The position numbers and the translations under genes were made by a program. Of a stretch of DNA of 64,000 bases, positions 3,102 to 50,743 are shown in pieces; position 1 is the stretch's first letter; every line of letters begins with the position of its first letter. Under the pieces are notes generated by a model. It saw nothing but the letters and a program-made list of their open reading frames with translations, did not search any database and was not told the origin of the DNA. Source of the stretch: an uncultured Chloroflexia bacterium (GTDB taxonomy: Bacteria > Chloroflexota > Chloroflexia > Thermomicrobiales > Thermomicrobiaceae); assembly GCA_963739715.1 (NCBI GenBank), contig CAVUBN010000014.1, positions 16,791 through 80,790 on the forward strand. The letters are read 5' to 3'.

Positions 3102-4934
3102 ATGGGATTACCTTCGAAGAGAAATCAATTCAGAAACTCAACACGTTATCCGGTTCTCATCATGCTCGTAGCGATGATCGTGGGACTAGTTCCCTTCATG
3201 GCGGTGCCGCCGGTGGCCGCCGCTGGAGTGGTCGGAACGGGGACCGCGGCCAGTTGCACCGACGCAGCTCTCGACCGAGCCCTCGCTGGAGGAGGGCATA
3301 TCAGCTTCAACTGTGGCAGCGTGCTGACTACGATCATGATCACCCGCACCATTGCTATTCATCACGACATAGCGATTGACGGTGGTGGGCTCATTGCGTT
3401 GAGCGGCGAAAACGTGCATTTAGTCATGAGCATTGAACGTGGCGCGCACGTGAACCTGAAAGGGCTGACTATCGAGGACGGGCACGGTCTCGACGGTGGT
3501 GGGATCTTCAATTTCAACGGAATACTGACTATTAAGAATTGCAAGTTCCTTAATAACAAGTCGCTACGGGGAGGAGCGATCTACAACTGGACGCGATCGC
3601 AACTCCGGATCACCGGCTCCTTCTTCAATGATAACCACGCGGTCGCTCGCGCCCATCACCCCAATGCAGAAGGCGGCGCGATCTTCAACGCTCCAGGAGC
3701 TACTCTGGGCGTCGAAGGTACCACGTTCGCAAAGAACGATGCGTATCTGGGTGGCGCCATCTTCAGTGGCGCTCGATCCTCAACGCGAATCAACAACGGA
3801 ACCTTTCAGGCGAATCACGCTGGTCGGGAGGGTGGTGCCATCTGGAATCAGGGCAACATCAAGATCGCGCAGAGCCATTTCACCGAGAATCACTCAGACG
3901 ATCTCGGCGGAGCGATCATGAACACCGGTCATGGCGATCCTCCTGGACTTCCATCCGTCTATACAGGACACATGACGATCGATCACTCAGAACTGAGCAG
4001 CAATTCATCTCATCTATACGGTGGCGCTGTCGAGAATGACGGGATCATCACTATTACGCACAGCACGATATCCGGTAACTCTTCTGAGGGAGGAGCTGGC
4101 GTGGCCAGCTTCGGTAGCGCCACACTTGAGTACGACACAATAACAGGCAACCGCGCGACCGCGTATGCTGGCGGCGTTGGATTCAATGATCCCCATACTG
4201 GCGGGTCAATCGCCTTTAGCACGATCAGCGGAAATTCGGCCGGCTCTGGAGGTGGAATCTACGTCGGGCCAGGCGTCGGCTTGGTCATTAGCTCATCGAC
4301 CGTTACGACAAATACGGCCGTTCACATCGGAGGCGGATTGTATATAGACCGCTACACAGCCGGTGATTTGGCGGGCAACATCGGATCAGTGGATTTCTGG
4401 AACAGCACGATGTCGGGAAACTCTGCTGGCGACACGGGCGGCGGCATCGAATCTCGAGGGAGCCTAGACATCGAATCAAGCACGATCGTCGAGAACAGGG
4501 CACCAACTGCCGCCCAGTTGGACGATTCTTGCGGACACTGCGGCATCCCCCGGGGCCTTACGGACGGGCCCATCCACCTTCATCCGCGGATACTCCAGAT
4601 GCTGGATACGATCATCGCACAAAGCCCGCCTGGAGAAGACAACTGTCGCATCACCTACTATTGGACCGATATGGGCCACAACCTCAGCGACGATCGCTCC
4701 TGTTTCGCCACGGTCAGTGGGTCAGCATCGACCGATCAGGTGGTGTCGTCGGTCATGCTTGGTCCCCTAGCCGACAACACCGGCCCAACACAGACGCATC
4801 TCCCACAGTTTGGCAGCCCGGCCATAGACCATGGCACCTGCAAGTTTGAAGAAGATCAGCGAGGCGTCGCTCGCCCACAAGGTGGAGGATGCGACATCGG
4901 GTCGGTTGAAGCCGCGAAGCTGAACAAACCCTAG
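3102..4934 (+). CDS. Secreted right-handed beta-helix repeat protein (Pmp-type GGAI-FxN repeats, choice-of-anchor-Q-like C-terminus)
   Basis: Signal-anchor LIMLVAMIVGLVPFMAVPPVAAA. Many GGAIFN/GGAIYN/GGAIWN/GGAIMN repeats. C-terminal DQRGVARPQGGGCDIGSVEA motif. Confidence 0.8.
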   Translation: MGLPSKRNQFRNSTRYPVLIMLVAMIVGLVPFMAVPPVAAAGVVGTGTAASCTDAALDRALAGGGHISFNCGSVLTTIMITRTIAIHHDIAIDGGGLIALSGENVHLVMSIERGAHVNLKGLTIEDGHGLDGGGIFNFNGILTIKNCKFLNNKSLRGGAIYNWTRSQLRITGSFFNDNHAVARAHHPNAEGGAIFNAPGATLGVEGTTFAKNDAYLGGAIFSGARSSTRINNGTFQANHAGREGGAIWNQGNIKIAQSHFTENHSDDLGGAIMNTGHGDPPGLPSVYTGHMTIDHSELSSNSSHLYGGAVENDGIITITHSTISGNSSEGGAGVASFGSATLEYDTITGNRATAYAGGVGFNDPHTGGSIAFSTISGNSAGSGGGIYVGPGVGLVISSSTVTTNTAVHIGGGLYIDRYTAGDLAGNIGSVDFWNSTMSGNSAGDTGGGIESRGSLDIESSTIVENRAPTAAQLDDSCGHCGIPRGLTDGPIHLHPRILQMLDTIIAQSPPGEDNCRITYYWTDMGHNLSDDRSCFATVSGSASTDQVVSSVMLGPLADNTGPTQTHLPQFGSPAIDHGTCKFEEDQRGVARPQGGGCDIGSVEAAKLNKP

Positions 4935-5094
4935 CTCGCGATCGCAGAGACCACCATGGAGAGGCCGGATTGGCCTCTCCATACCGGAGGGCATCGGCTG
5001 CCGGTGGTTCCTACTATCGAACCAATGACGAACCCCTCAGCCAACGACGTAGAGCTTGATGGTCGTGAACAAGAGAGCTCTGTTCAGAAAGGCA

Positions 5095-5613
5095 ATGGAC
5101 AACATGATCCGAAGACGATTTCGTTTCCTGACACTCGTCAGCCTGGTTGCGCTGATTGGAGCAGTACTTGTTCCAGGCGCTGGAACGGCGCTGGCCGATC
5201 CCGCTCCCTGCGTTATTCGAACCGGGATCCCGTATGGGATCTGGCCCCACATCGCGACACGAGGTGCGTGTGTGACCGCACGTGTGCGTGTTCCATCAGA
5301 GTCGTATGGCAGCCATCCCAGCATAGGACTGGCAATTTCCGACTTCCCTTTAACATATGGCAGTACAGTCGAATTGGAGATTCCGATGAACGCCGACGGC
5401 TATGGAACCTTCAGGGTTCCGGATGCGGTGCCATATGGGCTAAACGAAGTGGACATGGATGTGATCGAGCAAAACGGGGTTGTAGTCTTGGGGCCGAATG
5501 AGCATCTCTACGTTGTCTCCGTGTTGCCGGACTTTTCGAAGATTCTTCCGGTCACCCCGCGGCCGATCTACCCTCCGCCATTCGGATTCAATCCACCGCC
5601 TGTACCGAGATAG
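5095..5613 (+). CDS. Secreted hypothetical protein with proline-rich C-terminal tail
   Basis: Signal peptide MIRRRFRFLTLVSLVALIGAVLVPGAGTALA/DP. Tail is PRPIYPPPFGFNPPPVPR. Paralogous to the next ORF. Confidence 0.55.
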   Translation: MDNMIRRRFRFLTLVSLVALIGAVLVPGAGTALADPAPCVIRTGIPYGIWPHIATRGACVTARVRVPSESYGSHPSIGLAISDFPLTYGSTVELEIPMNADGYGTFRVPDAVPYGLNEVDMDVIEQNGVVVLGPNEHLYVVSVLPDFSKILPVTPRPIYPPPFGFNPPPVPR

Positions 5614-39874: not shown

Positions 39875-40249
39875 TCAATGCGTATTGTGGTATGAGATGG
39901 ATTCCCAGCGCGTCGCGCTGACGTCGTCATGGCGTAGCACGCGCGGAGCAACGCGATCGATACGCACGATTAGCCCGCAGGCCGGGTCAGGACAGGTGAC
40001 GCGGGCATCGCTCTCCATCCAATCGGCTGGGTGATTCTGTCGCTGCTTGGCGGGCAGGAGCGGCAGAACCGAATTGAGCGCGTAGAGGCAGAAGTCGGCG
40101 TTGTCCGGAAGCGAGAGCTTGCCGCTGCGCAGGTGGAAGCGATCGCCGAGAGACATGGCGCAGGTGCACTCACCGTTAATCTCCTCAACGACGACATCCA
40201 GATCGTAAAGCGTGAATTCATCTTCACGCCGCGTCTCGTCCTGGCCCAT
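39875..40249 (-). CDS. TIGR04076-like small Cys-containing protein
   Basis: ATG 40249 behind GAGGGAG. CTCAMSLGDRF...FCLYALNSVLPLLPA...VTCPDPACGLIVRIDR pattern. Confidence 0.7.
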   Translation of the reverse strand: MGQDETRREDEFTLYDLDVVVEEINGECTCAMSLGDRFHLRSGKLSLPDNADFCLYALNSVLPLLPAKQRQNHPADWMESDARVTCPDPACGLIVRIDRVAPRVLRHDDVSATRWESISYHNTH

Positions 40250-40292
40250 CTTCACTCCCTCGTTCATAACGTATCGCGAATGATGCTTCTAG

Positions 40293-41273
40293 CTAATCCC
40301 TCACGCGTAGCGCCGGTAGGACGCGCTCTCCAAGGAGTCGCAGACCTTCATTCTCGTTAAGGCCATGTGGCGTCCCGAACTCGATCCGGTCGACACCCGC
40401 CTCGAACAGCTCGAGCGCCTGGTCAGCCACCTCCTCAGGCGTCCCGGCGAACGCGATGCGCCGCAACAGCTCGTCGGAAATGTAGCGGCCAGCGGTGTCG
40501 AAGTCGTATGCCGCAGCGGCTTGACGGATCCCACTCAGAATCTCAGGATCAATATCGAGCTTCGGCCCGAGCTCGGCGACAACCGGCAGATAGAGAGCAA
40601 CTTCACGACGTGCCAGCGCGCGGGCCCGTGCGCCATCTTCGTCCACCACCGTGACCGCTCCCACGACCAATCCGACCGTCACGTCCCCAGTCCGCGCGCG
40701 AAACCAGGCTGCTACGTCCGGATTAGCGGTACCACCCAGCTTGACTTCTTCCACAAACGGCAGACCCTCACGAAGCATACGCGGGCCCCAGCTACCGAGC
40801 AGAAACGGAATATCGGGTCGAATCGCCTCCCAGCGAAGCGCATCGCCACCGGATACGCTGAAGATCTCCCCCTTCAACGGTGACCTAACACGCTGAAGCA
40901 GGTGCCGCACGCAAGCCATTGCTTCTTTGACGGCCGCCACCGGGCTCTCCGGCTCAAGCCCGACAAAGTCGAGCCAGGCACCACGGGCGAAGCCGAGATA
41001 GGCGCGTCCCTGAGAGGCTTCATCGATCAAGGCGATATTGGCAGCGATGTTGACCGGGTGGCAGGTGAACGGATTGACCGCGGCCGGACCGATCCGCACC
41101 CGGCTCGTATGGCGCGCAATCTCCAACAATGGCAGCCAAGCTGGTTGATAGAGCATGTCATTGAAGACACTGACTCCGTCGAAGCCATACTGCTCGGCGG
41201 TCGCCGCCAGCGATCCATATGCCGTTAACGGCTTATTCGTCTGAAACGCAATGCTAACCGAACGTGATCTCAC
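40293..41273 (-). CDS. LLM-class (luciferase-like, probably F420-dependent) oxidoreductase
   Basis: GFDGVSVFNDMLYQPAWL, IGPAAVNPFTCHP, GTPEEVADQALELFEAGVDRIEFG. Confidence 0.85.
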   Translation of the reverse strand: MRSRSVSIAFQTNKPLTAYGSLAATAEQYGFDGVSVFNDMLYQPAWLPLLEIARHTSRVRIGPAAVNPFTCHPVNIAANIALIDEASQGRAYLGFARGAWLDFVGLEPESPVAAVKEAMACVRHLLQRVRSPLKGEIFSVSGGDALRWEAIRPDIPFLLGSWGPRMLREGLPFVEEVKLGGTANPDVAAWFRARTGDVTVGLVVGAVTVVDEDGARARALARREVALYLPVVAELGPKLDIDPEILSGIRQAAAAYDFDTAGRYISDELLRRIAFAGTPEEVADQALELFEAGVDRIEFGTPHGLNENEGLRLLGERVLPALRVRD

Positions 41274-41501
41274 CTAACAGCCTCCGTACGTCTCACCCTG
41301 GAAGCGATTCTCAACACCGGCCTGCCGTACATGCGCGACGAGAGTCCACACTAGAGGATGCAGCACAAAACTGCATTTCTGCGGCCTATTGTCTCTCACC
41401 GTTCGTGTCAGAATCAGGGTTTCTCCATAATTGGTCCTGGACCGATTTTGCAACGTGCCCCTTCACAATGCACGTGCTGCGAAGAATCGAGCACCCAAAG
41501 G

Positions 41502-42953
41502 TTATCCCCGCGCTACGTCCGCCAGGTATTGCGCGCGATTGAGCGGATTCAATCCGATGCGAGTTCTGACTGGCACGTCACCGGTCACCGAAACGTGCCC
41601 TGCAAAAGTTGACATCCAGCTTCCATCTCCACGAGTCAAAGATGGAAGCTGTTGCTCGACGGCACGTAGCTCCACAGTGGGAATCTCACAGATAACGCGG
41701 TATGACACGCCTTCAAGAAACGCATTTCGGATGGTCGCACGCGCGTTCACCAATGCTCCGCAGACTGCCCCAAACGTATCCTCCGGAATTTCGAGATCAA
41801 ACTCCTCGACCGGCTCACAGACCTTGGTCCCCGCAGCACGCAAGGCCTGCATCAGCACAAGTGGAGTCAGCTTACGGAAGTCTCCGGCAGTACTCAACAC
41901 CGAGTTAAATCCCGCGGAAGTGAGCGTGACGATACAATCGGTCACCTCCCAGCCATACAATCCCTGAGAGAACGTCTCGTATACCGTCTCCTCGATGGCA
42001 CGGTAAAACGCGAGTGGCAACGACCCGAGATCACGAACATAGCGAACGCCGCTCCCGGGTTCGGCCGGCTCAACGCGAAACGCGACCGTCGCATAGAATG
42101 GATTTGGGGCCTCGAAGATGATCTCGGCACACTCTCCGGTTCCAACCGGACGCTCGATGCAGATTGTCTGGCTGGGTCCGAACGTCACGCCAACGCCATA
42201 TTCTCGCGAAAGCGTCTCCTGCACGACCTCCTTCTGGACCTCGCCATAGAGACGAATCGATATTTCTCCCTCTTCGTTGCGTTGGCGCAGCGAAATGAGT
42301 GGATCTTGTTCCGCAAGTTCTTCGAGTGCCGCTCGTAATTGCGTGACGTCGTTCAGGTCAACCGGGCGCACAACGCTTTCCAGAGACGGCTCTGGAAACA
42401 TCGAGGTGATCTCTCCAACATCCGATTCGTCGACACCGATGCGGTCGCCGATACGTGCTGAACGGAGCCCATGTAAGGCAACGATTTCCCCGGCACTCAC
42501 CGACTCCGTTGGTGAGTCTGTTCCCGCAGCGAAGCAATCAATTCCGGTAATACGCTCGTCAACCTGCTGTATCTCACTGAATACGTCGCGACGCCGTAGC
42601 GCCACACGCTCTCGCACCGCCAGACTTCCCGCGAAGAGCCGGACATAGACGATCTTCTCTCCAGAAGCCCGGCGGACGATCTTGAAGACTTCACCGGAAA
42701 CCGGAACGTCGTTCTCTCTCCCAGCCTCAGGGAACCACTCCTCAATCCCAGCTAAGAGTTCGGGGACACCGGCGCCGGTAATCGCCGATCCGAAGAAGAC
42801 TGGAACGATATTGCACGCCCCTACCTGTTCCCGCAGCTCTGCCCGTAGAAACGAGCTGTCCAGATGCCCTCCGGTACGATCGAACTCCTCGATCACGTTC
42901 TCGCTTGTCTCAGCGAGAAGATCGATCACCGAGTCTCGCCAGCTCGGGCTCAT
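41502..42953 (-). CDS. Tet(M)/Tet(O)/OtrA-type ribosomal protection GTPase, domains II-V (second ORF of a split gene)
   Basis: VPVFFGSAITGAGVPELL, EF-G-like domains. Overlaps the G-domain ORF by 44 nt in another frame. Confidence 0.85.
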   Translation of the reverse strand: MSPSWRDSVIDLLAETSENVIEEFDRTGGHLDSSFLRAELREQVGACNIVPVFFGSAITGAGVPELLAGIEEWFPEAGRENDVPVSGEVFKIVRRASGEKIVYVRLFAGSLAVRERVALRRRDVFSEIQQVDERITGIDCFAAGTDSPTESVSAGEIVALHGLRSARIGDRIGVDESDVGEITSMFPEPSLESVVRPVDLNDVTQLRAALEELAEQDPLISLRQRNEEGEISIRLYGEVQKEVVQETLSREYGVGVTFGPSQTICIERPVGTGECAEIIFEAPNPFYATVAFRVEPAEPGSGVRYVRDLGSLPLAFYRAIEETVYETFSQGLYGWEVTDCIVTLTSAGFNSVLSTAGDFRKLTPLVLMQALRAAGTKVCEPVEEFDLEIPEDTFGAVCGALVNARATIRNAFLEGVSYRVICEIPTVELRAVEQQLPSLTRGDGSWMSTFAGHVSVTGDVPVRTRIGLNPLNRAQYLADVARG

Positions 42954-43473
42954 CGCGATTCGATTCGACGACCTCGGCAGTCAAATCACCGATCCCAATG
43001 GGGATATTCATCGGCACGACGCGCAGATTCAGCTTACGGCCAATATCCCCCAGAAGTGGCTCACCCCGTGCGCCGAGACGATCGATCTTGTTGACGAAGA
43101 TCAGCATCGGGAGATTTGCCGCGCGGATGGCCCGCGCGAGGCGACGGGTCTGCGGCTGCACGCCCTCCACGGACGAGACGACCAGCACGATGCCATCGAG
43201 GACGCGCAGTGATCGCTCAACCTCGGCGACAAAGTCTCCATGGCCGGGAGTATCGATCAGATTGACTTTAAGGTGGTGAAGCTGAAAGGAGACCACCGCG
43301 GATTTAATAGTGATTCCACGGGATCGTTCCAGATCCATCGTGTCGGTTTGAGTCGTGCCTTTGTCGACACTCCCGACCGTCTTAATCACACCAGTTTCGA
43401 AGAGGATACGCTCAGTTAGGCTGGTTTTACCAGCGTCTACGTGCGCCAGGATTCCGATATTGACAATCGCCAT
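42910..43473 (-). CDS. Tet(M)/OtrA-type ribosomal protection GTPase, G domain (first ORF of the split gene)
   Basis: MAIVNIGILAHVDAGKTSLTERIL, SVDKGTTQTD, DTPGHGDF, NKIDR. Very close to the OtrA/TetM N-termini. Confidence 0.88.
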   Translation of the reverse strand: MAIVNIGILAHVDAGKTSLTERILFETGVIKTVGSVDKGTTQTDTMDLERSRGITIKSAVVSFQLHHLKVNLIDTPGHGDFVAEVERSLRVLDGIVLVVSSVEGVQPQTRRLARAIRAANLPMLIFVNKIDRLGARGEPLLGDIGRKLNLRVVPMNIPIGIGDLTAEVVESNRDEPELARLGDRSSR

Positions 43474-43641
43474 GCACCACTCTCTCGTTGAAGACCATTC
43501 CGATTGCTGGATTCTTCAACGATTGCCGCATGGGACTCTCCTTCTGTGTACGCAAGGACATCAACGTCAGCCGGCGGTATCACCATATGCGCCTCAACAC
43601 GACGCGCCGTAGACCAAGAGATCAGACCGTGCCGCATTCTA
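43474..43641 (-). promoter_or_regulatory. Promoter (-10 TAGAAT) and 5' leader with leader-peptide ORF and 9-bp-stem hairpin, copy 1
   Basis: -10 at 43636-43641, RBS GAAGGAGAG at 43536-43544, leader ATG 43531, hairpin CGTTGAAGA-N18-TCTTCAACG at 43486-43521. Duplicated at 47447-47614. Confidence 0.5.
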
Positions 43642-43701
43642 GCAGCGTGGCACGTGATGGCGCTACTATGGTTAGCGATCGCACATCATGTGACCGTAGT
43701 G

Positions 43702-45492
43702 TCAGACCAGCGAAACCGGATCATCCGCATCGTGCCACAGGGAACGCATCTCGGCGCAGGTTTCCAGCAAGAAGGCCAGCGTGCCCTCAGCTTCGACACG
43801 ACCTTCCTTCAACACGACGATATGGTCGGCACGGCGCAGCGCAACACGACGATGAGACACAGCCAGGCACGTCACGTCACCACTCGCCAGCAGGCGCTCC
43901 CACAAGACACGCTCCGTCTCGACATCCAGCGCACTCGAGAGGTCGTCAATCACCAGCAGTTCGGCGCGGCGCACCAACATGCGTGCTGCCGCAGTTCGCT
44001 GCACCTGACCACCGGAGAGCTTGACGCCGCGCGTGCCGACCGGAGTGTTCAATCCGTCCTCCAGTGTCTGCACGTCCTGCTCCAGAACAGCACCACGCAC
44101 GGCGGCGGTCAGCGCAACTGGGTCATCGGGTAACCCCAGGAGAATGTTCTCCTTGAGCGTTTCGCTGAAGAGACGTGGCACCTGCGCCGTATACGCCGCT
44201 CGCGGCGGCAGGAAAAACGAGGCCGGATCGTCTACGATCTGGCCATTCCAGCGAATCTCGCCTGCCTCCCGGGGCAGCAAACCCAAAAGAGCCCGCAAGA
44301 GTGTTGTTTTACCTGAGCCAACACGTCCCGTCACGACCGTCAGCGTTCCTCGCGGTAGCCGCAAATCCACCGCTTCGATACCGCTCCCCGACTGACGGTA
44401 GCGATAGGTCAAGCCGCGCGCTTCCACAACGACCAACGATTCACTGGCATCAAGTGCTGGTGATGGCGACAGGGTCGGTAGAGGGCCGCGTAGATATAGC
44501 GGAGTTGGCGCCAACAGGGCAGCCGGTGGCGCGTCTCCCAACAAGGCGAACATGCGTGAGAACGCGACGCCGGTCTGCTGGTAGTGAGCCAGGAAATTGC
44601 CAAGCCCTTTAGTGAACCCGGCAATGAAACCCAGGTAGGAGATAAACAGGACAAAGTCGCCCACGGTTAAGCTACCGCTGCGCAGGCTTCCGGCGGCCAA
44701 CAACATGATGAGACCGGTGCCTATGCTCACCGCGTTGGCCGTGATAGCGTCCAGAGCCTGCGTCATCAGGCGATCAGAGAGCATAGCGGCCCGGCGCTGC
44801 TCGTTCAGTCGCCGGAAATGGGCCACGATGCGCTCTTCGGCGCCGGCCGCCTGCACCGTTTGGACCGCACCCAGGATATCGCCGATGGCTCCGGTGACCT
44901 GACTTGTAGCCTGGCTGCTGGCGGCACGGTAACGACCAAGCGCGGTGCTGGCACGTCGTGCGATGACTACTACGACCACGAGGGGCAGGAAGACAACGAA
45001 CGTCATACGAGCGTTGATATGCAACAGCACCAGGAACGCCACGATGGCAAACAGACCCGTGCCGAGAATGTCGTCGGCCCAATCCAGGTTGTCCTCGGCC
45101 TCGTGCGCATCGTCGCGAAAACGGCTGATTGTCTCCCCAATGGAGAAGGGAAGCGCAGCGGCGCCCGGTCGATCCAGGACAGACCGCAGCAGGTTGCGGC
45201 GGAGCAGTCCACTCATGATGAACCGCATGACAATTTCGGCCAGGCCACCGGCAAGCCAGAGAGCCGCACTCACCACGGCGATTACGACCAGCATCACGAT
45301 TAGTCCGGTCGTGCCAACGCGAAGGTGCGCCTGACCGGTGAGCGTATCGAAGAAGGCTCGGGCGATCAGCCCCGGCAGCAGGGGCGACAGGTGAATTAGA
45401 CTCCACAATACCGCGTGGGTCAGGGAGATCCGGGGCGAGTAGCGGACCATTGCCAGGAGGTTGCGCCAGGTCGACCGCTCTCGTTCCTTCAT
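43702..45492 (-). CDS. ABC exporter, fused permease/ATPase (half-transporter B)
   Basis: 6 TM helices plus [31 protein letters not shown]. Confidence 0.9.
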
Positions 45493-47240
45493 GAGGAGAC
45501 CTCCTCAGCGGCAACCCTCAATAATCCCGCAAAGTGTGAGGTGGGGTCAGCCGCGAGGTGACCTCGCGGCCCGTGCTCCCGAACCTGCCCGTCCTCCAGA
45601 ACAAGAATGTCATCCGCAAAGGCAATCGTGGACAGCCGATGTGCGACAACGATGCCAGTTCGGCCCTCAAGCAGCCGTCCCAACGCGGTGTGCACCAGCC
45701 GCTCGGTCGCTGGATCAAGGCGCGAAGAAGCTTCATCTAGGATCACCAGGTCCGGATCATGGAGGAAAACACGCGCACAAGCCAGCACCTGAGCCTGCCC
45801 GGCGGAGAGCCCAATCCCTCCGGGACCTAGCATCGTGTCCAGCCCACCCGGTAGCTCTCGCAGCCAGCCGGCTAGGCCGAGCGTATCCAGCACAGCGCCG
45901 ACCCGGTCATCCGGTACGCTACCGTCGAAGAGGGTCAGGTTATCGCGCACGCTCGCGCTAAAGAGATGCACCTCCTGAGTGACCAGCCCGATGCGCGCAC
46001 GAACCGCCGCGATGCGGACGGTACGCAGATCGACTCCTCCCAGCCGCACCTCACCGGCTTTCGGATCGTAGAAGCGCGGGAGTAGCCGTGTGAGCGTTGT
46101 CTTCCCGCTACCGGTTCGGCCCACCACACCCAGCACCCGTCCCGGCTCCAGGCACACACTAACGTCGCGCAGCACCAGATTGCCGTTTGCGTAGCCAAAT
46201 GAGACACCGTCGAGTTCCACGGCCAGCGGACCGGGTGGCAACGAGACGCCGTGTCCATCGACGAGACACGGAGATGTGCTTAGTAGCTCCTCGATACGGC
46301 CTATGCTGGCGTCCGCCTGTTGAAGGTCCTGCGCTTCTCTGCGGATCTGCTCGGACGGCTGACGCAACACCGCCGTGTATTGGAAGACCAGATAGACGGT
46401 GCCGATCGTTAGCTGGCCATCCCTGTACAGCATGGCACTCAGGGCAAAGGCGACTGCCGTGCCAAGCGCAAACAGCCCTTGACTGGTGGCGACCATCGCG
46501 TAACCCCACATCTCAGCCTTGAGCGTCACGGCCAGCCACGACCGCATCACCTCGGCGCATCGGCGCAACACGAAGGCACCCGCTCCGCTCGATCGAACAT
46601 CCTCCATGCCGGCCAGATATTCACCCAGAAAGCCATAGAAATTGGCACTGGCCTGGCGTTCTTCAGCCCAGGATGGGGTGGCAACGACCCGGATTCGCAG
46701 CATAGCCGTCAAGCCCAACACCACAAAGGCAGTCAGGCCCAGACCAATCCGCCAATCCACGTGATAAAGGAGCCCGAGCACCGCAAGTATCAAGATTCCG
46801 TTGCCGAGCACATAGACCACAAACCGAGAGAAGAAGCGGGCCAGTGTGGCGACATCCCCATCGACCCGCTCGATCAGCTCACCCGGCGTATGGGCATTGT
46901 GAAACGATGCATCCAGTCGCAGCAGATGTGTGATCAGGTCGGCACGTAGCGTGTTGGTCGCCGTCCAGGCAACATTCTCGGCCAGGTACGTTTCGGCAAC
47001 GGCCATACCCTGTCCCGCCAGGGAAAGACCCATGGTCAGCAGCGCCAGGAAGATCAGACCGTGTAGAGCCCCGCCGGAGGTAGCCTGGTCGATGAAGCGG
47101 CTCGCCAGCAACGGCGTGACTACCTGAGCGCCGATGAGACCGCCGAGGACAGCGGCGAGAAGAATCATCCGCAACCAGTACGGCCGCAGGTAGTGGGCTA
47201 GCAAGCGCCAGTAACGATGCAGTTCCTGAAAAGGATTCAT
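45489..47240 (-). CDS. ABC exporter, fused permease/ATPase (half-transporter A)
   Basis: [35 protein letters not shown] overlap with the downstream partner. ATG 47240 overlaps the stop of the upstream relic ORF. Confidence 0.9.
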
Positions 47241-47446
47241 GGGAAGCACCTCGTCTCGTCACGCATACCGAGACGATCGATGGCGTTTACGAATCCGGAC
47301 ACCGTGAGATCTGAAACAACGAGCAGGTTAGACTCGGACTGGTTCGGTTGAAACCAGACCCTTACCGGTTCACTGAGGTTATGTTGTGTGAGACAGGTTC
47401 TACCAGCGTCTAGATGCGCTCGGGCTCCGATATTGACGATCGCCAT
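47237..47446 (-). pseudogene. Relic of the 5' end of a second ribosomal-protection GTPase gene (69 codons)
   Basis: MAIVNIGARAHLDAGRT... and FVNAIDRLGMRDE match MAIVNIGILAHVDAGKT and FVNKIDRLGARGE of the intact gene, with internal deletions. Confidence 0.7.
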
Positions 47447-47614
47447 GCATTACTCTCTCGTTGAAGACCATTCCGATTGCTGGGTTCTTCAACGTCTTCT
47501 GCATGGGATTCTCCTTGGTTATGGTGCCAATGTATCGAAACCGTACAACCTGCGTTGTGGGTCCGTCAAAAACGACGCGCTCTCGAGACGAAACATGAGA
47601 TCTTCTCGGATTCT
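47447..47614 (-). promoter_or_regulatory. Promoter (-10 TAGAAT) and 5' leader with leader-peptide ORF and hairpin, copy 2
   Basis: -10 at 47609-47614, RBS AAGGAG at 47511-47516, leader ATG 47504, hairpin at 47459-47494. The -10 and ATG sit at the same spacing as in copy 1. Confidence 0.5.
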
Positions 47615-47968
47615 AGCAGCATGGCACGCGTCCGCGCTACCGTGAGCGGCGACAGCGTATCCTGACAGAAGTGTTACGCGGGTGAAATCAGATCCTCAAC
47701 ATCCTGATGGCGTTCAGTGATGGTGTCACCACATACGAGTACTTTGAGTTCTGGCGTGCGGGAGAGTGCCTGGAGGACCGCGTCATCTCGACCCGGCTAC
47801 AGCTCTGAACCTGATCACATAGTGACAGGAAACGTTTTGAAGAAGCGCTTCATCCCCAGCCGAGGATGGAGCGCTCACCGGGCTGATCGACGACTGCGAC
47901 ATAATCGACGCCTCGTGAGCAAGGGGAGTTGCCACGGTCTCGCGACGCTCCGCTGTGGGTACCGTTCG

Positions 47969-48565
47969 TCACCAGATGTGGGGAATTAACCGGTAAGGCA
48001 CGCAGCCGCAGTAACCTTGGTACCCGTCAAGGTGGTTCACAAGATATCGTTCTTCATCCGAGAGGCGCCAGATAAGGATACCGAGCAGCGGAAGCACGAG
48101 GACAAGTCCCCACCACGACCCCAGTGCCGGTGGGAAACCGAGAAACACCAGCAGCAGCCCACTATACATCGGGTGACGCACGTAGGCATAGGGTCCGCTC
48201 GAAATCACGGGTTGTTGAGGCTCCACGGTTACGGTGGCCGCTGCAAAGGGATTGGCACGAAAGACCAGCCATAACAGTACCAGGCCACACGCGAACAACA
48301 GATCCCCGAACAGCACAACGGAGGGAGGCACAGAAGACCAGCCGTGATCGTGATCGATCGCCGAGACTGCGGCCAGGGTCAGAATATCGAACTGCAAGAA
48401 CACGACTATGACCTTTTGGATGGGTTCATGCTCAGACAGCGGTCCGCTGCGCAGTCGTCGCAGCAAGAGTGCCGGATGAGTCACGAGGTGGGTGAACAAG
48501 GGAAGGCCGCTCACCACTCCGACGACGAGGAGGACTCTGGCTTGCCACCACGATGACGGGCTCAT
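47969..48565 (-). CDS. ICMT/PEMT-family membrane methyltransferase
   Basis: GPYAYVRHPMYSG...RLSDEERYL motif and 4-5 TM helices. ATG 48565 behind AAGGAG. Confidence 0.8.
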   Translation of the reverse strand: MSPSSWWQARVLLVVGVVSGLPLFTHLVTHPALLLRRLRSGPLSEHEPIQKVIVVFLQFDILTLAAVSAIDHDHGWSSVPPSVVLFGDLLFACGLVLLWLVFRANPFAAATVTVEPQQPVISSGPYAYVRHPMYSGLLLVFLGFPPALGSWWGLVLVLPLLGILIWRLSDEERYLVNHLDGYQGYCGCVPYRLIPHIW

Positions 48566-48943
48566 CCTCCAATCTCCTTGTCGCAAAGGACGCGGAAATC
48601 CTGAAAGCGAAACCGGAGTTCGAGAGGCTCCCCTTCGTTGACGGGTTCAACGTGCTGATGTCTGGTTATTTGCACGATAGCCTACCTCCTGGACGATAGT
48701 ACACTATGGTACGGTCTTACCAACCGAACGGCAGCGACAGAATTGCGTACCCTATCACCGACTTTCTGCTTTTTGGGGTTCGTTGTGGGGTTGCTTGGCT
48801 GTTGCTGGATGGACTTGGCCCTGAACCAACAGGTTCCTGCCGCTTTCTTGTTCGACTGGGAACAGTTTGAGAAGGCAGCCGACTAACCTATCAGGTGGAC
48901 CAATCTGAGGATCCGGTCACCTGGCCCAAATCCCTCTTGTGGC

Positions 48944-49807
48944 TCAGACAGAATGGAGGTTACCGTCGATCTGTCGCTCCAGCCAGGCGAGTAGATCGCC
49001 GGTGACCGTCTCGTGCCCGACATCGTTGTGGACCTGATGATAGGCGCCGGGATATTCATGCAATGTCTTGTCATCCGTTCCGGCGTTCGCCATGAAGCGA
49101 CGGCTGCCGTCTGGCCGTGCGATCCGATCCGCATCACCGTGCTGAATCAGGAGCGGCACGCGCAGCTCGCCAGCATGCGACTGGACCCAGGCGACGGTCC
49201 GTTCGGTCTCCGCTGCCAGCCGCGCGGTACCACGATCGTGCACGAGTGGATCGGCCCGATAGGCGGCGACGAACTGTGGGTCACGGGAGATCGCAGTGAC
49301 GTCCAGCCCGGTACGTAGTGAGAACGAGGGCCACGCGCGCGACATGATCCGAGCGATGGTCATCAGCGCAGGTGAGACACCGATCTCGCCAATCGCCGGT
49401 CCGATCGCAACAACACCGCACAGATCTTCCGGATAACGCAGGGCGTAATCGAGCACGATGATGCCCCCGAGACTGTGACCGAGGAGGAAGATCGGCTGGC
49501 TCGACTGCTGTTCGGAGACGAAGTGTACGAAGGCATGCAGGTCCTGCCGATAATCATCCCATGATTTGATGAATCCCCGCTGCCCGGGAGAGCGGCCATG
49601 GCCACGTAGATCGAATCCATACGTCACGAACCCTGCTGGCGTGAGACGTTCCACTACATTATCGTAGGCCCCGCTATGCTCTCCAATGCCGTGGACGATG
49701 ATTGTTGCGGCGCGCTGTGGGACGCTTTCCGCAGCCCAGGACTGTTGATACAGGGTCAGTCCGCCAAACCCAGCAAAAGTCCCTTCCCGATGCGCGATCC
49801 CAGCCAT
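48944..49807 (-). CDS. Alpha/beta hydrolase (lysophospholipase/monoacylglycerol-lipase-like)
   Basis: HGIGEHSGAY, nucleophile elbow GHSLGG, C-terminal HQVHND. Confidence 0.85.
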   Translation of the reverse strand: MAGIAHREGTFAGFGGLTLYQQSWAAESVPQRAATIIVHGIGEHSGAYDNVVERLTPAGFVTYGFDLRGHGRSPGQRGFIKSWDDYRQDLHAFVHFVSEQQSSQPIFLLGHSLGGIIVLDYALRYPEDLCGVVAIGPAIGEIGVSPALMTIARIMSRAWPSFSLRTGLDVTAISRDPQFVAAYRADPLVHDRGTARLAAETERTVAWVQSHAGELRVPLLIQHGDADRIARPDGSRRFMANAGTDDKTLHEYPGAYHQVHNDVGHETVTGDLLAWLERQIDGNLHSV

Positions 49808-49864
49808 TTACCCCTCCGAAGGCCACTCCAGACGAGTCGCGACATGTTGCCCATCCATCGACAC

Positions 49865-50743
49865 TTACGTCTGCTGCAGCGTGGGGACGCGCTCGATCTC
49901 CTGACGCCGGTCGAGACGCCAGATCGTCATGGTGCTATAACAGCCGCCAATGAGAACCGCGAAGAGATAGATGACGTAAAGCCAGGTACCAGGCCGGTGC
50001 CATTCGACTATCGTATGGAAGCGCGCCAACGCCACGAGCTGGAGCAGGCCAACGATGAGATAGGGGACGCTTCCAACGCGGCCGCGGGTCCAGTCCTTCT
50101 CCTGAAAGAACCAGAACGAGGCGATCGCGATGGTGAGGAAGACGGTACCGGTCGTCTGCGCCGTCAAGGTGGTCAGCTGCCAGGGCCAGAGGGACAAGAG
50201 CCGATCCGAAACCAGGAACAGCGTCAGACCGACGACGAGCGAGACGGCTGCATTAGCACCCAGGAGCAGGCGGATCCAGAGGGGCACGGGCGCGATCCTG
50301 TCAGGATCCCCACCTGGCATACGGACTTGCAGGACAACAAACGCCAGGATCGCGAATGGGACGACCACATAGACAACGAGCCAGGCCCAGGCCGCGACAC
50401 GCGGGCCAACATCGTGACTGTGGAAGTGGAATGGGGAGAGATGCATGAATGTTGTGAGGGTGATGAACGGCACGAAGGTCAACACCGCTGCCATCGCAAC
50501 ACGAACGTTGGCCCAGGCCGACTCACGCACGGAAATCAGGAGTAATAGCGTACCGGCCCAGAACCCACCACCCAGAAAGGCAGCCGAGAGGGGATTTCCG
50601 ATCGTCCAGGCGAAATATCGATCGGTGCGATCGGCAAGCACGTAGAGTTGCACGCCCGCGATGCCAGCCAGGATGATCGACAGAGTAAAGACGGCACGTG
50701 TAATGGGAAGAACCGGTTTCACCGCAGGGACGTCGGTCGTCAT
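49865..50743 (-). CDS. Hypothetical polytopic membrane protein (about 8 TM)
   Basis: 292 aa, hydrophobic throughout. No recognised family. Confidence 0.6.
   Translation of the reverse strand: MTTDVPAVKPVLPITRAVFTLSIILAGIAGVQLYVLADRTDRYFAWTIGNPLSAAFLGGGFWAGTLLLLISVRESAWANVRVAMAAVLTFVPFITLTTFMHLSPFHFHSHDVGPRVAAWAWLVVYVVVPFAILAFVVLQVRMPGGDPDRIAPVPLWIRLLLGANAAVSLVVGLTLFLVSDRLLSLWPWQLTTLTAQTTGTVFLTIAIASFWFFQEKDWTRGRVGSVPYLIVGLLQLVALARFHTIVEWHRPGTWLYVIYLFAVLIGGCYSTMTIWRLDRRQEIERVPTLQQT

Follow-up and report, generated by a model that had tools for sequence, protein, structure and literature searches.

A conserved leader with an overlapping upstream reading frame and facing start codons ahead of an Otr(A)-like GTPase gene in an uncultured Chloroflexia bacterium

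A GTPase gene of the ribosomal-protection type lies within a 64,000-nt stretch of DNA from an uncultured Chloroflexia bacterium (contig CAVUBN010000014.1, positions 16,791 to 80,790; hereafter the window). It is preceded by a short upstream open reading frame (uORF) that crosses the start codon of the gene in another frame, and by a hairpin between the two starts. A second copy of this leader stands ahead of a pair of ABC exporter genes. The question raised by the locus is whether such a leader is a regulatory element and, if so, what it would sense and how. An earlier note on the same DNA had proposed a conserved cis-regulatory leader of attenuator-like layout, with uORF and hairpin placed beside the ribosome-binding site (RBS) of the GTPase gene, and orthologous loci support that proposal. 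All features described below are on the minus strand, and coordinates are those of the window.

The leader and its helices

In copy 1, a strong Shine-Dalgarno (SD) sequence, GAAGGAGAG (43536–43544), precedes the uORF (43427–43531), which starts with the ATG at 43531, has 34 codons followed by a TAA stop (43429–43427), and encodes MRQSLKNPAIGMVFNERVVHGDCQYRNPGARRRW. The minimum free energy fold is a bipartite hairpin. Its inner helix, P2, is the hairpin of the earlier note, and pairs a 5' arm, UCGUUGAAGA (43513–43522), made up of uORF codons 3–7, with a 3' arm, UCUUCAACGA (43485–43494). The outer helix, P1, had been overlooked: its 5' strand, AGUCCCAUGCG (43527–43537), includes the uORF start codon and pairs with UGCAUGGCGAUU (43465–43476), which carries the GTPase ATG (43473–43471) and codons 2–3, so that the start regions of uORF and gene are joined with their start codons facing one another. 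The weak SD of the GTPase gene, GAGAGAG (43480–43486), lies in the internal loop between P2 and P1, while the main ATG is paired. On re-reading, the coordinates given earlier, the peptides of both copies, the 9-bp arms of copy 1 (CGTTGAAGA, 43521–43513, and TCTTCAACG, 43494–43486) with their 18-nt loop, and the position of GAGAGAG beside the 3' arm all proved accurate. Two counts needed correction: the SD is separated from the uORF ATG by 4 nt rather than 5, and codons 2–4 of the two copies differ at 4 of 9 nt rather than at 5.

About seven perfect 9-bp stems with a loop of up to 30 nt are expected by chance in 64 kb (64,000 x 28 x 4^-9), so that the 9-bp hairpin taken alone is not significant. 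The significance of the leader rests on its local fold, on its presence in every Thermomicrobiales-type orthologue examined, and on covariation. The 96-nt local folds reach −34.1 kcal/mol in copy 1 (z = −4.2) and −27.5 kcal/mol in copy 2 (z = −3.6), relative to dinucleotide shuffles. A search of both strands of positions 40000–50000 gave no match to an Rfam 15 covariance model at E ≤ 1.

Ten different orthologous loci were fetched by protein identity, a selection that is unbiased with respect to the leader, and all ten carry the element. A metagenome scan with the P-loop codon pattern of the GTPase, in which the Gly codon was left free, gave 120 loci, and together with the earlier ones these provided 55 distinct leaders of the window type, mostly on Thermomicrobiales-like contigs. 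They have a common geometry. From the uORF ATG to the GTPase start the distance is 58 nt, or in rare cases 59, 61 or 64. P2 begins with its 5' arm 9–10 nt past the uORF ATG (8–13 in a few), and its 3' arm ends 10–17 nt before the GTPase start, leaving between arm and start a weak SD that reads GAGAG, GGGAG or GAAAG in the orthologues. In all 52 leaders that were aligned (with MAFFT), a GGAG-type SD lies 5–8 nt ahead of the uORF ATG, and both the SD G (alignment position G13) and the ATG are invariant. The uORF frame is open across the GTPase start in 55/55 leaders, with a stop 34–44 nt beyond; the absence or interruption of the leader frame that the earlier note had allowed for in orthologues is not seen. 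A covariance model built from the same 52 leaders matches only two sites in the window, copy 1 with 111.1 bits and copy 2 with 96.6 bits (E = 1e-22). As negative controls, GTPase loci of human-gut origin were used (L105–L110, L119, L127, L133 and similar), which match the P-loop codon pattern, have neither uORF nor helix, and are preceded by what looks like a tRNA end and by a terminator-like hairpin (AAGCCCTTACG..CGTAAGGGCTTT).

Across the 52 aligned leaders P2 is 94.7% paired, and compensatory two-sided changes are found in 7 of its 10 pairs. For example, U-A has become C-G in 11 sequences, G-C has become A-U in 11, and A-U has become G-C in 6, and one position shows all of G-C, A-U, C-G and U-A. 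None of 500 shuffles reached the covariation score of P1 and P2 combined, and sliding the partner by 1–3 columns lowers their pairing from 86% to 29–50%. RNAalifold finds P2 without guidance, and a model-based alignment of 58 distinct matches concurs. P2 is therefore established as a conserved helix, and this part of the earlier proposal holds.

Part of P1 is automatic, CAUG being self-complementary. The helix is 86% paired, and its flanks co-vary: in the clade that has CGG as its second GTPase codon, for example, the pair of C (−2 relative to the uORF ATG) with G (+4 relative to the GTPase ATG) is replaced by G:C. The duplex energy of cognate P1 strands averages −17.5 kcal/mol, compared with −11.2 ± 3.5 kcal/mol for shuffled partners, and in divergent clades (L099, L146, L175, L156, L198, L122) the cognate partner is better than non-cognate ones by 5–11 kcal/mol. 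P1 is well supported by these comparisons.

The earlier note had suggested a search for mutually exclusive hairpins. When the whole predicted 5' untranslated region (UTR) of 208 nt is folded (z = −0.9), no alternative structure is found that competes with P1/P2, and mutually exclusive hairpins are therefore not supported. Ribosome occupancy, rather than an alternative fold of the RNA, appears to act as the switch. If the uORF start is masked, the P2 loop CAAUCG (43506–43501) can form 6 bp with GTPase codons 2–4, CGAUUG (43469–43464), a pairing which, judged by eye, is not consistently conserved in orthologues. A third short conserved block, GCGCGTCGT.., occurs near the predicted 5' ends of both transcripts (43608–43590 and 47586–47570) and reads GCGTGTCGTTTCGAGGCGCAT in several orthologues. 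It may form a 5' stem-loop, the whole-UTR fold itself not being significant.

The upstream frame and its stops

The uORF had been described as a conserved leader peptide, a description that the orthologues do not bear out. In L125 and L183, a 1-nt insertion after codon 3 rewrites the peptide to MRQFVEAS..FLQRGCC.., while the helix and the open frame are retained. In L085 and L191 the helix is followed by one additional nucleotide, and the overlap is read in the other frame. Further clades encode MAELSRTH.., MRGLENF.. or MGCTSKTQ.., with arms that are different but complementary, and the codons in the loop vary freely. The peptide is not the conserved entity. Its identity between the two copies in the window is trivial, because these are one duplicated block of 121 nt with 87% identity (47516–47396 and 43543–43423); the synonymous changes between them (AAT/AAC, GTG/GTA), previously taken as a sign of translation, carry almost no weight in a comparison of two duplicated copies.

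The overlap with the GTPase start, noted earlier, is confirmed, and what had escaped notice is that the stops of the uORF are selected inside the P-loop codons of the gene. In copy 1 the uORF stops 44 nt after the GTPase ATG, within the GGT-AAA (Gly-Lys) codons of the P-loop, in the other frame, and most uORFs likewise end at the TAA within GGT-AAR. Among GC-rich sequences, the GGT codon for this glycine is found in 57 of the 73 that have a crossing uORF and in 6 of the 51 that have none (Fisher p = 1e-13), and of those six at least two (L001, L010), probably four, are leaders missed by the detector. The exceptions are informative. Six of the seven leaders that stop 9 nt earlier, at the TGA in GTT-GAC, are without GGT; the frame-shifted leaders stop at the TAG in CAT-GTA-GAC, and two of them have GGG; and relic copies with a dead P-loop have kept the uORF stop, as GGT-AGA in copy 2 of the window and as GGT-AAG in L197. 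Synonymous variability is also low in this part of the gene, with 0.239 for codons 2–16 against 0.421 for codons 17–150 in 11 unbiased loci (one-sided Mann-Whitney p = 0.0096), the lowest window of the first 150 codons. Since the sequences are phylogenetically related, these tests and the shuffle statistics overstate independence, and the pattern of stop-codon compensation is a stronger argument for translation of the uORF than the p-values.

Three independent features support translation of the uORF as the likely state of affairs: the invariant SD and ATG, the open frame, and the compensation of stops. The leader has in this way the general attributes of a translated uORF, namely a conserved SD and start, an open frame and a stop under selection, with the caveat that the ATG is located within P1. 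The possibility that uORF and GTPase are a single gene joined by frameshifting was considered and rejected, as the GTPase aligns from residue 1–4 of the family profiles. A side observation concerns the His-Val-Asp codons at 43446–43438, which are mostly CAT-GTA-GAC in Thermomicrobiales-type genes, although GTA for valine is rare in GC-rich DNA. They close the second alternative frame with a TAG, and together with GGT-AAR this means that both out-of-frame readings are closed within 45 nt of the start.

The genes behind the leader and its wider distribution

The gene order along the minus strand is promoter-like block, leader 2, an ORF of 69 codons, ABC1, ABC2, promoter-like block, leader 1 and GTPase. 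ABC1 (47240–45489) and ABC2 (45492–43702) are two overlapping half-size ABC exporter genes (together 43702–47240). Leader copy 2 (47400–47516), whose presence was correctly reported before, has its SD, AAGGAG, at 47516–47511 and a uORF running from the ATG at 47504 to a TAG at 47402–47400, which encodes MQKTLKNPAIGMVFNERVMHGDRQYRSPSASRRW. Its P2 arms are at 47494–47486 and 47467–47459, and in its P1 about 47510–47500 is paired with about 47449–47438. The duplication comprises a promoter-like block of 31 nt and exactly the stretch from the SD to the stop of the uORF; the roughly 95 nt between the two show no detectable similarity between the copies. The block of copy 1 (43636–43666) contains a TGn-TAGAAT extended −10-like element (TAGAAT at 43641–43636) and is 84% identical over 31 nt to that of copy 2 (47610–47640; TAGAAT at 47615–47610). 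A scan for consensus −35/−10 promoters found nothing, and the element ..CTG(C/A)TAGAAT.. is present in orthologues too. We infer a putative promoter function from the conservation of the TAGAAT block.

The earlier description of copy 2 did not include the ORF that links it to the exporter genes, here called the relay ORF (47237–47446). It begins at a relic of the GTPase ATG (47446), which has been kept along with its SD, and ends after 69 codons with a TGA (47239–47237). The first 16 or so codons are a decayed GTPase (AHLDAGRT), and the remainder is unrelated to it. Its stop overlaps the ATG of ABC1 (47240–47238) in an ATGA (47240–47237), as in coupled gene pairs. The same arrangement is found in L197, an independent metagenome contig (Ga0307373_10034740, 1–5742), which has in order a leader, a relic ATG, a relay ORF of 101 codons, ABC1, ABC2, promoter, leader and GTPase; there, the TGA of the relay ORF is 2 nt before the ABC1 ATG, GAGGAG lies upstream, and ABC1 is 81% identical to that of the window. 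The two relay peptides cannot be aligned, and at the DNA level an alignment requires indels of 14, 7 and 80 nt. In both contigs the relay frame is the sole stop-free frame of the three. The chance of an open relay frame in shuffled spacers is 0.127 and 0.105. On this comparison it seems to be the translation of the relay, not its product, that is kept, and the relay would pass on to the exporter gene those ribosomes that began at the regulated start. In L084, L091 and L092 the homologous ABC pair is found downstream of the GTPase gene, in one operon with it, whereas in the window it is under its own copy of promoter and leader.

The GTPase gene (41502–43473) encodes EF-Tu/EF-G domains, and its best family matches are the Otr(A) model and the general tetracycline ribosomal-protection model, tet_protect (NCBIfam NF000120 and NF012153, of the Otr(A)/Tet family). 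It is split into ORFs 43473–42910 and 42953–41502 by a 1-nt insertion near 42950 (CGCGATGAGCCC, compared with CGCGA-AAGCCC in four orthologues), which lies outside any homopolymer and reflects either a pseudogene or an assembly error. The two halves score 260.6 + 405.7 bits with the Otr(A) model and 253.6 + 385.2 bits with tet_protect, and their combined alignments cover both profiles end to end. Intact orthologues score 688–698 bits (cut-off 900) and 665–677 bits (cut-off 775), respectively, so that the curated cut-offs are not reached. Because the match is end to end yet below these cut-offs, the protein is named only ribosomal-protection-protein-like (RPP-like); it is a relative of that family, and its resistance function is putative. 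The closest relatives, with about 70–80% identity, are intact metagenomic proteins of 655–657 amino acids, and the named ones are mostly from Thermomicrobiales. A gene for a luciferase-like (F420-type) monooxygenase occurs near the RPP-like gene in L084 (about 4400–5400), L091, L092 and the window (40293–41273). The side on which it lies varies, which indicates local rearrangement of what appears to be a small conserved neighbourhood.

Leaders of similar plan occur outside the Chloroflexota. A genome scan with protein alignment, keyed on the generic GTPase motifs AHVDAGKT and NLIDTPGH, listed no Thermomicrobiales orthologue among its matches, which served only as an outgroup and negative set. 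Among the matches listed, at least 15 of the 17 closest RPP-like genes have an SD followed by a uORF beginning ATGCG.. (M-R-..), and the EF-G-like remainder have essentially none. These uORFs start about 60–90 nt upstream of the gene, cross its start and usually end at GGT-AAR. The carriers are Actinoplanes, Paractinoplanes, Streptomyces, Actinosynnema, Mycobacterium, Thermoleophilia, other Actinomycetota and a metagenome-assembled genome of Vicinamibacterales. Cultivable strains among them are Streptomyces prunicolor NBRC 13075 (L016), Paractinoplanes globisporus DSM 43857 (L007) and Actinoplanes sp. CA-142083 (L001), and the analogous loci of Actinomycetota and Acidobacteriota are L001–L017, L111, L150, L164, L169, L184, L193 and L214. 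Their arms are clade-specific yet complementary (UCAUGUCC/GGACAUGA and CUCCUCGGAA/UUCUCGAGGA). In Streptomyces, the AUGCG of the uORF pairs with CGCAUG at the gene start, and the main SD (GAGGA) is inside the 3' arm. The covariance model of the Thermomicrobiales type barely detects the actinobacterial versions and provides no statistical link to them, and the likeness is best described as a shared architecture, which is not proven homology.

Proposed modes of action and relation to known systems

From what is observed above, namely the anatomy of the leader, its conservation and covariation, the selection on its stop codons and the energetics predicted for it, each copy is read here as a ribosome-dependent translational attenuator, in which a drug-stalled ribosome would free the main start. 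The probability of this reading is put at roughly 0.6. In the OFF state, free mRNA would form P1 and P2, the latter joining uORF codons 3–7 to the sequence just upstream of the main SD. The uORF, which has the stronger SD and is transcribed first, would be where a ribosome loads and where the drug is sensed. Without drug, that ribosome would pass through P2, occlude the main SD and ATG, and terminate 34–44 nt inside the gene, after which the hairpin could re-form. With an inhibitor of initiation or of the A site, for example tetracycline, the ribosome would be arrested on the uORF start or the first codons, where it would cover P1 on its 5' side together with the greater part of the P2 5' arm; the SD and start codon of the main gene would then be single-stranded and free of traffic, and drug-free ribosomes could start on the protection gene. 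At copy 2, ribosomes starting at the relic GTPase start would translate the 69-codon relay and pass to the ABC exporter through the ATGA.

Modelled energies are consistent with this sequence of events. Opening the main RBS (−15 to +12) costs 19.8 ± 3.2 kcal/mol in free mRNA, and 10.2 ± 2.4 kcal/mol with a ribosome footprint centred on the uORF ATG, or 9.7 kcal/mol with one at codon 4 (n = 55). In the window, where the free mRNA has −49.9 kcal/mol of total structure, placing a ribosome on the uORF leaves −26.8 kcal/mol. The position of the P2 arm, 9–10 nt past the uORF ATG, is within reach of a ribosome that has this ATG in its P site.

A number of points weigh on the other side. Placing a ribosome on the uORF start raises the predicted unpaired probability of the main RBS only modestly, from a mean of 0.35 to one of 0.43, a measure that was less informative than the opening energies, and about 10 kcal/mol of structure remains in the modelled ON state. 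The RBS of the uORF is as sequestered as the main one (20.8 kcal/mol), so that co-transcriptional loading or SD-driven invasion has to be assumed; the first ribosome would probably load during transcription, or be drawn in by the strong SD that sits at the P1 base. That the uORF ATG never varies could in part be due to its pairing with CAUG at the main start, and the relatedness of the sequences weakens the statistics, as noted. As regards the gene itself, the copy in the window is frameshifted, family assignment falls below the NCBIfam cut-offs (665–698 bits against 775 and 900), and it is from this family that the inducer and the direction of regulation are deduced. The stall site and the translation of the uORF likewise belong to the deduced part of the scheme.

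A bolder form of the attenuator is put forward tentatively, with clearly less than even confidence. The leader may be a peptide-independent and possibly co-transcriptional "one-shot" drug sensor built on paired start codons, ancient, common to Otr(A)-like genes in at least three phyla, and portable to unrelated genes by means of the relay ORF. The first ribosome would load on the uORF before its pairing partner has been transcribed; if arrested early, the gene start would never close, and if not, the ribosome would sweep across the gene start and terminate at the P-loop stop, whereupon the mRNA would lock.

Foremost among the other explanations, though unlikely, is constitutive translational coupling, by which the uORF ribosome would unwind P1/P2 and then re-initiate backwards or leave the site open, the uORF being an activator of basal expression. 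The equal sequestration of the two RBSs would fit, as would the constant overlap of the uORF with the main start and the short, conserved distance from that start to the uORF stop. However, a passing ribosome occludes the main start, re-initiation 34–44 nt upstream of a stop is expected to be inefficient, and a weak main SD behind a strong uORF SD, ahead of a resistance-type gene, is the usual inducible design. Overlapping uORFs that act by coupling are nevertheless documented in Sinorhizobium (PMC13285730).

The strength of the local structure (−34 kcal/mol, z = −4.2) could also be that of a drug-independent repression or stability element, in which P1/P2 lower translation or protect the 5' region of the mRNA, or uORF ribosomes permanently occlude the RBS, with regulation exerted elsewhere, for example at the promoter. 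The conserved promoter block has indeed been duplicated along with the leader, and occlusion of an RBS by upstream RBSs has been proposed in the literature. This explanation is somewhat less likely than coupling. It leaves unexplained the selected stops of the uORF, the spacing of 9–10 nt between its ATG and P2, and the retention of the module from SD to stop before ABC genes in two lineages.

Transcription attenuation is less probable again. The uORF would here control premature termination, instead of or alongside initiation at the main start, either at a terminator, as in tet(M) and whiB7, where uORF-controlled terminators are used, or through Rho, as in topAI, where lack of translation of the main gene triggers Rho termination (PMC12121999). 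However, there is no terminator-like site (a stem followed by a U-run) in 43380–43760, the hairpin being followed by AGAGAGUGG. With no such site and no competing fold in the 5' UTR, control is most simply placed at initiation. The resemblance to tet(M) drawn in the earlier note fails mechanistically on the same ground, and on the crossing of the GTPase ATG by the uORF in 55/55 leaders.

Very improbable is a functional peptide of 31–40 residues or a ligand-binding, riboswitch-like hairpin: the N-terminal MRQ(S/T)LKSP and the FFN motif do recur in the main clade, but they are encoded by the helix arms, L125, L183 and the other clades retain the helix with unrelated peptides, the GTPase codons of the overlap fix the C-terminal half, the P2 loop and internal loop are variable, unexpectedly for a ligand pocket, and the element has no Rfam match.

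The leader is of interest in several ways. Soil Actinomycetota and Chloroflexota carry Otr(A)-like ribosomal-protection genes in abundance, and these genes are considered a reservoir for tetracycline resistance in the clinic; the leader offers a testable mechanism by which the ribosome itself would sense tetracycline. The covariance model can flag putative inducible resistance genes, and captured genes such as ABC exporters, in genomes and metagenomes. The leader also shows how stop codons can come under selection within the P-loop codons of a catalytic domain in the service of an overlapping frame, and synthetic biology in high-GC bacteria could use it as a small inducible part.

Searches of full-text literature turned up neither a described leader ahead of Otr(A)-like genes nor an account of how such genes are switched on, and the leader is apparently both widespread and undescribed. 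The nearest parallel is toiL, upstream of topAI-yjhQP in E. coli. Tetracycline arrests ribosomes at start codons genome-wide, and at toiL-topAI this opens a pairing between uORF and RBS (PMC12121999). As in the leader described here, the uORF pairs with a downstream RBS that arrest at a start codon would free, and no special nascent peptide is needed for the response to tetracycline (PMC12121999); correspondingly, the uORF start of the present leader lies within P1, and a ribosome placed there halves the modelled opening cost. However, toiL has 8 codons, ends upstream of its target, belongs to a toxin-antitoxin operon and acts together with Rho termination (PMC12121999), whereas the uORFs in question have 31–40 codons, overlap the main start and stop inside the gene, their start codons pair with those of the gene, and what they precede is a resistance-type GTPase gene. 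In sequence the two leaders are unrelated.

The leader peptide of tetQ reportedly has only three codons, with alternative hairpins. On the Bacteroides element CTnDOT, tetQ is a ribosomal-protection gene under translational attenuation by tetracycline, its mRNA being made constitutively, according to the accounts of Wang et al. 2005 in PMC5418344 and PMC3809561. It resembles the present case in that translational, not transcriptional, attenuation is proposed for such a gene, and is unrelated to it in sequence, host phylum and architecture. The tet(M) gene of Tn916 (Su et al. 1992, listed in PMC5418344) is induced by tetracycline and also has a short leader ORF, orf12, upstream of a ribosomal-protection gene, but there attenuation is transcriptional, at terminators, and the leader ORF ends upstream of the gene.

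The erm-type resemblance proposed earlier stands in part. As in ermC, cat and cmlA, leader-ORF codons supply one side of a helix by which the RBS of a resistance-type gene is hidden, and in those systems a stalled ribosome opens the helix. What is not shared is a conserved stalling peptide, as L125, L183 and the other clades make clear. In ermC, cat and cmlA, the stall is specific for drug and peptide and has one defined codon inside the leader as its site, and the leader does not reach the main start, whereas here the peptide is not conserved, the arm begins 9–10 nt past the ATG, and the ORF crosses the main start. The overlapping uORFs of Sinorhizobium meliloti are alike in crossing a main start and influencing it by ribosome traffic, but they belong to single housekeeping or regulatory genes, without a conserved bipartite helix or a link to resistance genes (PMC13285730). 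Overall, a sensory uORF that opens the sequestered RBS of a resistance gene is of a known kind (ermC, cat, tetQ, toiL), and what is distinctive about the present leader is the pairing of start with start, the overlapping uORF with its selected P-loop stops, and the re-use of the module through a relay ORF.

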